Part shown: in pieces, positions 62,440 to 63,396 of the stretch
How the letters are laid out: each line of letters opens with the position of its first letter
Numbering within the stretch: the stretch's first letter is position 1
Origin: a virus
Strand: one strand, 5' to 3'
DNA: 64,000 nucleotides
Virus genome (UHGV): UHGV-0176771
The notes under the pieces: model-generated
What the model saw: the letters and a program-made list of their open reading frames with translations, nothing else
The model's database searches: none
What the model was told of the DNA's origin: nothing
Made by a program: the position numbers and the translations under genes

Positions 62440-63396
62440 CAAAACACCCATCCACAAGGACGACAAAATATATTGTTATGTGAATAGTTACATAGAACAT
62501 AATAAACCTAGAGCGGCTTTCGTATTAATCTAGTGTCACCCAGATAATAATCAGCAGGTTTTTGTGCGCCACTGATTGACGGTCAGCGCAACACTTAAGG
62601 TGAAACAGCCCGTAGTTGATTCGAACAACTGAAATGCAGGAGTCAAAGTCCTGTGCCTTACCGCTTGGCGAACGGGCTAAAATACTCCTAAGATGTTAGC
62701 AACAGCACTACCAGAACAGCAATGCTATTACTAACTGAAAAGGAGATTAGAAATCGTCAAGTGCGCGCATAAGCACTTGATTATAAATACAAATGGAACT
62801 TCTTCCTACTCAAACATATTGTCATAATGTTCTGCCACTACTTACAAAGGGCTGAGAATAAGGGAGCTACCCTTAGACTTCCTTTGCATCTGGAAACAGT
62901 AATTGTAGTCTCGACTGGTTACGAGAAACTTTCACCCAGGTCATTCAGCAATTAACCATTTTTTATACTTGTTCTATTATCTATCTGTAATATGTATTCT
63001 TTTTCTTTTCTCACGTCACTTTGGGCTACTCGTACATTCGACAGATCTTATACTGGGATTTCTCCCGATCAACGACGCAACTGACTTATTTGGATTTCCG
63101 CTACTTATCTCTCTGTAACATTCCACCGATACAGGCATCACGATTATTACTCCACTGGAGTCGTCTATTATGTCAGCGATCTGGCAATTGCGTTTTACGG
63201 CAATATATTATTGTACATATATTTAGTTTTGACAGTTTCCGTCTTTCTGTTTATGATTCACATCATTCCAGAAACTGCAGTATAAAACTATCGCATTATA
63301 CCGTAACTCACTATTCATATATTCTCAGCATGGTGACAAACCAATCTGCACTGAGTTATTTGTATTTATAAGCAAGTGCTTATATTATCTACATAT
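62440..63396. ncRNA. Candidate large structured non-coding RNA (about 0.95 kb, GC about 42% against about 33% background); strand not determined
   Basis: No credible ORF. Nested pairings are visible by eye, for example GCCCGT[GTTG-ATTCGAA-CAAC]..[CAGGA-GTCAAAG-TCCTG]..[GCC..GGC]ACGGGC at about 62598-62670, and CAAGTGC-GCGCATAA-GCACTTG at about 62757-62778. Bracketed by a terminator and a tRNA-like gene. Confidence 0.35.

Follow-up and report, generated by a model that had tools for sequence, protein, structure and literature searches.

Positions 62440-63396 of the window (the whole stretch of 64,000 nucleotides that was analysed) very probably form part of a minus-strand phage RNA-gene cassette with a ROOL RNA as its main component, and not a single RNA of about 0.95 kb, as the earlier note had suggested. 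The interval is composite: on the minus strand it holds a ROOL RNA of 604-607 nt, hairpins, a tRNA gene and the greater part of a spacer, and an atypical tRNA-like gene lies just beyond it. The note gave no strand, and the RNA was assigned to the minus strand from the Rfam match. Its broader expectation, a large phage RNA of the GOLLD or ROOL type beside tRNAs, was borne out by a full-length ROOL match in a tailed phage, within a same-strand tRNA cassette. The window ROOL adds a copy to a known family and is not a new kind of element.

Read 5' to 3' on the minus strand, the cassette consists of the ROOL RNA, a 96-nt spacer, tRNA-Gln, a 188-nt spacer (spacer2) and the atypical tRNA-like gene. 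The features of the region are the following, with L numbers denoting the loci used for comparison:

60814..62064, minus strand: gene for a PIN+PhoH fusion protein of the PhoH2 type (RNase domain plus ATPase), by Pfam PIN_4 and PhoH
62343..62416, minus strand: atypical tRNA(CAU)-like gene; Rfam tRNA match at 62343..62415, 38.9 bits (cut-off 29)
62417..62604, minus strand: spacer2, 188 nt, with predicted hairpins; 87-97% identity in 19 loci
62605..62679, minus strand: tRNA-Gln, anticodon UUG, by ARAGORN; Rfam tRNA match of 54.5 bits (62606..62678)
62685..62745, minus strand: hairpin B, with an 18-bp stem (G-U pairs included) nested in CUCCU/AGGAG, then UAUUUU
62758..62779, minus strand: hairpin A, CAAGUGC-UUAUGCGC-GCACUUG, whose 5' arm doubles as the 3' strand of the P1 extension
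62776..63379, minus strand: ROOL RNA (RF03087), by Rfam match and by covariation on 22 ROOLs
62860..62874, minus strand: conserved ROOL hairpin AAGGG-UAGCU-CCCUU (helix 30, 82.7% paired)
62951..63016, minus strand: variable A-rich ROOL linker loop, 52% identical to L038/L001 and 93% to L032
63380..63389, minus strand: A/T box GATAATATAA, whose AATATAA abuts the ROOL 5' end
63396..63420, minus strand: intrinsic terminator of the upstream ORF (63463..63984), stem TGGGCATCATGCCCG then TTTTTCTTTA

The GC content of 62440..63396 was measured as 38.3% versus 34.2% for the window, and only the tRNA part reaches about 42-43%; the 42% given by the earlier note is too high for the interval as a whole. 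The absence of a credible ORF was confirmed, the longest being a 116-aa frame with a TTG start, antisense to the ROOL RNA.

Identity, extent and fold of the ROOL RNA

The Rfam scan that had been proposed as a check, run over the whole window and repeated, identified 62776..63379 (-) as ROOL RNA (RF03087) with 325.1 bits (E 4.4e-74; gathering score 99.1 bits), and the match is complete, covering model positions 1-574 of 574. GOLLD (RF02032) had no match in the window at its gathering score and none in 62250..63500 at E up to 5. With 604-607 nt, the RNA compares with a family mean of 581 nt; the full molecule is probably 62773..63379, if the 7-bp extension of P1 (GCACUUG/CAAGUGC) forms.

ROOLs for comparison were collected by two routes. 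With the PhoH protein as anchor, 65 IMG/VR loci were obtained, and a motif scan gave 120 further stretches, with 25 carrying ROOL by nhmmer; 16 diverse ROOLs of the motif-scan set were verified by Rfam at 245-360 bits. For the covariation analysis, likewise proposed in the earlier note, 22 ROOLs were aligned by sequence only with MAFFT, and the Rfam structure of the window sequence was transferred to this alignment. Standard pairs occupied 72.1% of the cells, versus 54.0% in shuffled alignments and 40-47% when the partners were slid by 1-3 columns, and 128 of the 154 ROOL pairs had two-sided changes. The covariation score was 0.455 versus 0.182, and none of the 500 shuffles came up to 0.455. 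The multi-junction fold of the ROOL family, closed by a long P1, is therefore backed by covariation. The window sequence itself is canonical in 126 of the 154 Rfam pairs and non-canonical in 28, some of the latter being register shifts of the model alignment. The segments AATAG, CTGAATG, TGAAAGTT, AGTAG, TCAG and GAAG are invariant in all 22 ROOLs, the window included.

The linker at 62951..63016 is unalignable across the family, and the ROOL parts on either side of it are 93-98% identical to those of L038/L001. In solved ROOLs the linker is disordered and lies inside the cage (PMC12286853). All conserved stems are present in the window RNA, and the apical stem is of full length (about 63135..63112). 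The loop of the hairpin at 62860..62874, UAGCU (62865..62869), contains the self-complementary AGCU (62865..62868) and reads UCGCU instead in about half of the 22 relatives. A symmetric 4-bp kissing loop, L18 or L15, is conserved in ROOL cages and joins the half-shells (PMC12286853, PMC12990946). By analogy, the loop with AGCU is a candidate for the symmetric kissing loop between cage halves, its correspondence to the published L18/L15 being inferred.

The 5' side of the ROOL gene

The earlier note had placed a clean terminator at the boundary of the RNA. The hairpin with its T-run is present (63396..63420), but it ends the upstream ORF, which stops at 63463, and it lies 5' of the ROOL gene, 17 nt from the Rfam 5' end; the same terminator hairpin occurs in L032 and L038. 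Conservation begins abruptly at the AATATAA of the A/T box in an alignment of 11 distinct cassettes, upstream of which the genes differ. This AATATAA is invariant across the ROOL cassettes of the clade (window, L001, L031, L032, L009) despite unrelated upstream sequences, and L009 has it although its ROOL is only 65% identical.

The A/T box is a candidate -10 promoter element. L001 and L031 have TTGAAA-N17-CAATAT, whereas the window has no recognisable -35, and a consensus promoter scan upstream of the window ROOL gave nothing convincing on the minus strand. The promoter assignment is weak because of this missing -35 and because the terminator stands only 17 nt from the Rfam 5' end. Some other ROOLs have clear TTGAAA-17-TGnTATAAT promoters, 7-11 nt upstream.

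The sequence GCACTTG at the ROOL 5' end (63373..63379) recurs directly past the ROOL 3' end (62758..62764), and L009 has an analogous repeat, AAACA(A/G)T. Alternative pairing with CAAGUGC explains the repeat, which may also be a marker of the cassette ends.

The 3' side of the ROOL gene

The 96-nt spacer between ROOL and tRNA-Gln carries two hairpins, and folding of a 111-nt spacer sequence gave -42.3 kcal/mol (z -7.2). The 7-bp stem CAAGTGC/GCACTTG that had been seen by eye is real and corresponds to hairpin A at 62758..62779. Its 5' arm is shared: CAAGUGC (62779..62773) is also complementary to GCACUUG at the ROOL 5' end (63379..63373), a pairing that would lengthen P1 by 7 bp, so that hairpin A and the P1 extension are mutually exclusive. 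L032 retains the extension in the form GUAUUUG, which uses G-U pairs, and L009 in the form ACAAU/AUUGU; L009 also repeats the whole arrangement with a different sequence.

Hairpin B is 100% identical in 18 loci whose ROOL is about 91% identical, in 16 of which the PhoH protein is only 60% identical, and L032 retains it through two-sided and wobble changes. The equivalent in L009 has 16 bp followed by a long U-run, with the tRNA beginning immediately after it. The window hairpin B has no clean U-run, and the terminator scan gave no call there. Among other ROOLs, some end in classical terminators and others adjoin tRNAs within 0-9 nt. From its conservation, the U-run equivalent in L009 and the comparison with these other ROOLs, it is proposed here that hairpin B may be a leaky terminator or a 3'-end stabiliser of ROOL.

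A pattern search for hairpin B gave matches only in L032 and L138, and hairpin B was accordingly rejected as a widespread motif. Outside this lineage, nhmmer across 190 loci found neither the hairpin spacer nor spacer2.

tRNA-Gln, spacer2 and the tRNA(CAU)-like gene

The segments GCCCGT...ACGGGC enclosing three hairpins, read in the earlier note as part of a large RNA, are indeed complementary, but they belong to the cloverleaf of tRNA-Gln(UUG) at 62605..62679. Between cassette types this tRNA shows compensatory differences in the acceptor stem (GT/AC versus CA/TG) and in the T stem (T-A versus A-T).

Spacer2 has 45 predicted pairs, four of them compensatory, and it folds slightly better than shuffled sequences (z -1.6). 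It has no Rfam match. An RNA class is not claimed for spacer2, given the z of -1.6, the lack of an Rfam match and its restriction to one lineage.

The tRNA-like gene that had been reported at 62343..62415 proved to be a genuine match to the Rfam tRNA family (38.9 bits); ARAGORN made no call for 62343..62416. Read from U62416, the cloverleaf is the minimum-free-energy fold of this RNA, with a 7-bp acceptor stem containing one bulged U, G8, a normal T arm and the anticodon loop UCCAUAA, that is, anticodon CAU with C33. Judged as a canonical cloverleaf, the gene fails on the uninterrupted acceptor stem, U8 and U33. The L031-type copies have a compensatory change in the D stem. Lactobacillus phage 521B has the same architecture, also with C33, and its record annotates the gene as a pseudo 'tRNA-OTHER'. 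A motif scan found 23 distinct IMG/VR relatives; in the majority, the loop is the standard CUCAUAA and the acceptor stem is bulged by 2 nt at the same place. As the bulge is shared across this group, the gene looks like a recurrent phage tRNA(CAU) variant and not a product of decay, presumably acting as a tRNA of a non-standard kind.

Several further observations were made around this gene. The tRNA(CAU)-like group (window 62343..62416; L191:1504-1578; L192-L270) has the D arm GAGUGAAACGGAUUA and a bulge of 1-2 nt in the 3' strand of the acceptor stem. Directly past the window gene, a hairpin UCUCC-CCUGU-GGAGA (62324..62338, minus strand) includes the Shine-Dalgarno sequence (GGAGA) of the small ORF that follows; the hairpin is kept in every aligned cassette and may mask the ribosome-binding site. 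In L031 (3568-3656) and equivalents, an insert of about 100 nt sits between spacer2 and the tRNA(CAU)-like gene; by eye it resembles tRNA-Ser(UGA), including a long variable arm, ARAGORN makes no call for it, and it is absent in the window.

Gene neighbourhood and mosaic history

The window is assigned to a tailed phage because PHROGs identified structural, packaging and tail proteins in it, including terminase, tape measure, tail fibre and other tail proteins; a tyrosine integrase-like protein was also found. The sizeable genes near the ROOL region are all on the minus strand, and downstream of the cassette there follow a small ORF, the PIN+PhoH protein and a metallophosphoesterase-type exonuclease. 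A blastn search of 50,697 GenBank phages with the region, and with 24 kb of the window, gave only short tRNA matches and no close relative. Relatives of the PhoH gene were found in assemblies of Lachnospiraceae and other Clostridia, including Waltera and Kineothrix, and relatives of the window phage occur in gut Clostridia assemblies.

The PIN+PhoH gene follows the ROOL/GOLLD/tRNA slot in 65 of 65 loci, a set that had been anchored on PhoH. A general link between ROOL and PhoH was rejected, since among the other 24 pattern-found ROOL loci, some of them short, PhoH was near only one, from the same lineage; the link appears to be specific to this lineage. All 16 further IMG/VR ROOLs lie in same-strand tRNA arrays with up to about 30 tRNAs.

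The identity of the window to its relatives changes along the cassette as follows:

ROOL 5' 363 nt: about 98% to L038/L001, 88% to L032
ROOL linker: 52% to L038/L001, 93% to L032
ROOL 3' domain: 93% to L038/L001, 96.5% to L032
ROOL 3' flank: 100% to L038/L001, 75% to L032

The upstream ORF agrees with that of L038 (99.6%) and the PhoH side with that of L001 (98%). On these identities the window cassette is a recombination mosaic at a recombination junction, which would have received its linker and 3' domain from one relative and its 5' domain from another.

Other elements were noted in the window and in related arrays. The tyrosine integrase-like gene (54465..55583, minus strand; phrog_1, E 5.5e-39) lies 1.5 kb from a tRNA-Thr(UGU) gene (52832..52902, minus strand) preceded by a GC-rich hairpin, which is a likelier place for attP than the ROOL region if the phage is temperate. 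Between tail genes, 21656..21766 (-) matches drum RNA (RF02958) with 64.7 bits (cut-off 43). ROOL-carrying tRNA arrays (L125:187-276; L122:3098-3399; L085:2457-2836) include a partial OLE RNA match of 52.9 bits (cut-off 50) and tmRNA genes.

ROOL and GOLLD in one slot

The slot just upstream of PhoH holds ROOL in 26 of the 65 loci, GOLLD in 14, a divergent GOLLD-like RNA in 4 and neither in 21. In nearly all of these 21 that were examined, tRNAs lie close upstream; a few are too short upstream to judge. The clearest exchange is that between L008 and L009. Their left flanks share 99.65% identity along 2.6 kb, and their right flanks share 95.1% along 3.7 kb. Between these flanks L008 has a weak tRNA-like gene, GOLLD and tRNA-Thr (L008:2602-3718, 1117 bp), and L009 has ROOL and tRNA-Gly (L009:2927-3718, 792 bp), with the left breakpoint just before the A/T box. 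No description of a direct ROOL/GOLLD cassette swap was found in the literature searched. A related function of the two RNAs had been suggested from their similar contexts (Weinberg et al. 2017, PMC5737381), and the swap in near-identical phages supports the view that they do the same job. The two are not strictly exclusive, since one tRNA array, in L132, has ROOL, GOLLD and drum RNA together.

The divergent GOLLD-like lineage in this slot is represented by L013:3200-3638, L014:3185-3629 and L015/L016:2832-3675. The GOLLD matches of L013 and L014 are sub-threshold (98.5 and 92.8 bits versus a gathering score of 150), and L015/L016 were missed by Rfam. A third RNA class was considered for L015/L016 and rejected, as they are 77% homologous to the sub-threshold GOLLD of L013/L014; it was also rejected for the gaps of L059/L021, which have low GC and, in L059, small ORFs. 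Among the non-coding gaps of the PhoH slot lacking a ROOL or GOLLD match, no new RNA class was found. L022 (3585-3667) and L023 (3710-3792), whose slot has neither RNA, carry a tRNA with a four-base anticodon (acag) by ARAGORN, beside tRNA-Tyr.

Alternative explanations

A single covalent RNA of about 1.04 kb (62343..63379), in which tRNA-Gln, the spacer and the tRNA-like gene would be tethered modules as in some GOLLDs, is quite improbable. Embedded tRNAs are known for GOLLD (PMC12286853, PMC12990946), hairpin B has no clean U-run after it, the gap from hairpin B (end 62685) to tRNA-Gln (start 62679) is too short to hold a promoter, and the ROOL-tRNA spacer is 100% conserved in 18 loci, all of which would suit such a unit. 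However, the tRNA partner varies among related cassettes (Gln+Asn, Gln+CAU-like, Gly, Thr, Ile, Ser), tRNA-Gln evolves like a normal tRNA, many ROOLs stand alone with their own promoter and terminator, and the tRNAs lie outside P1, hence not within the ROOL fold. A cassette of separate RNA genes with ROOL as its main part is preferred.

An attP site or replication origin, whose complementary segments would act as DNA, had also been offered in the earlier note; it is needed for nothing that was observed and is given very little probability. The window does encode the tyrosine integrase-like protein, and tRNA genes are common attachment sites, but the integrase gene is 7 kb away, with the tRNA at 52832..52902 much nearer to it. 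Many stems contain G-U pairs, workable only as minus-strand RNA, the structure is explained by the covariation and by the covariance-model match over the full length, and no origin-type repeat arrays were seen when the sequence was read. Decayed coding DNA, or a chance match to an AT-rich covariance model, can be regarded as negligible: the composition bias term in the ROOL match amounts to 24.6 bits and a 116-aa plus-strand ORF exists, yet the match is full-length and scores 325 bits where the cut-off is 99.1, the substitutions in relatives are compensatory in stems and not codon-like, and the plus-strand ORF has a TTG start.

Proposed mechanism and significance

The cassette would be transcribed from the AATATAA box or from immediately past it. 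Most ROOL transcripts would be ended or stabilised by hairpin A and by the long hairpin B, which has a U-rich tail, and read-through RNA would carry tRNA-Gln, the spacer and the atypical tRNA(CAU), which host RNase P and RNase Z could release. In cryo-EM structures of other ROOLs, the monomers are flat and combine to hollow D4 octamers, or to hexamers where the apical stem is very short; the cages are held by kissing loops and A-minor contacts, with the variable linker inside (PMC12286853, PMC12990946). By analogy, the window ROOL is predicted to fold to a flat monomer, and its monomers to build a hollow homo-oligomeric cage by themselves, with kissing loops and A-minor contacts as the joints. 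The likely form is an octamer, given the full-length apical stem, the presence of the conserved stems and the loop with the self-complementary AGCU.

No function of ROOL is reported in the literature found. A translation- or tRNA-linked role during phage takeover, shared with GOLLD, is our best guess, held with low confidence; a shared role is favoured because the two RNAs replace each other at one slot in near-identical phages. A bolder reading is that ROOL and GOLLD are equivalent plug-in modules of phage tRNA operons, and that hairpin B, spacer2 and tRNA(CAU) form a functional unit with the cage. This is considered rather unlikely; if true, hairpin B would be a leaky terminator setting the ROOL:tRNA ratio, the downstream parts could be cargo, assembly partners or protected tRNAs, and the near-isogenic L008 (GOLLD) and L009 (ROOL) would be a ready natural test pair.

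ROOL is among the few natural RNAs known to build a protein-free cage larger than the ribosome. One more copy adds little by itself; the cassette swaps among relatives, the mosaicism and the terminator-like hairpins before tRNAs add more. Taken together, the swap, mosaic and 3'-hairpin observations support the same-job idea of 2017 and provide natural pairs for experiments.

Comparison with known systems

The window RNA resembles the ROOL family (RF03087; PMC5737381, PMC12286853, PMC12990946) in its full model match, its P1-closed fold, the invariant motifs and the place of the linker, as well as in its phage location beside same-strand tRNAs. No defining feature differs. The extras of this lineage are the 7-bp P1 extension that competes with the downstream hairpin, the conserved long 3' hairpin and the mosaic history.

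GOLLD (RF02032) is similar in being a large ornate phage RNA located by tRNAs and, in related phages, in occupying the same slot as ROOL. Both RNAs form hollow homo-oligomeric cages (PMC12286853), the cage of the window RNA being predicted by homology only. Unlike these shared traits, sequence and secondary structure show no similarity between the two families, and the stoichiometry is 10-14 for GOLLD versus 6-8 for ROOL.

As in phage tRNA arrays, ROOL is followed directly, on its own strand, by tRNA-Gln(UUG) and the tRNA-like gene. In contrast to such arrays, the window cassette has only two tRNA-type genes, with a 188-nt non-tRNA spacer between them, and one of the two is atypical in its bulged acceptor stem and C33.
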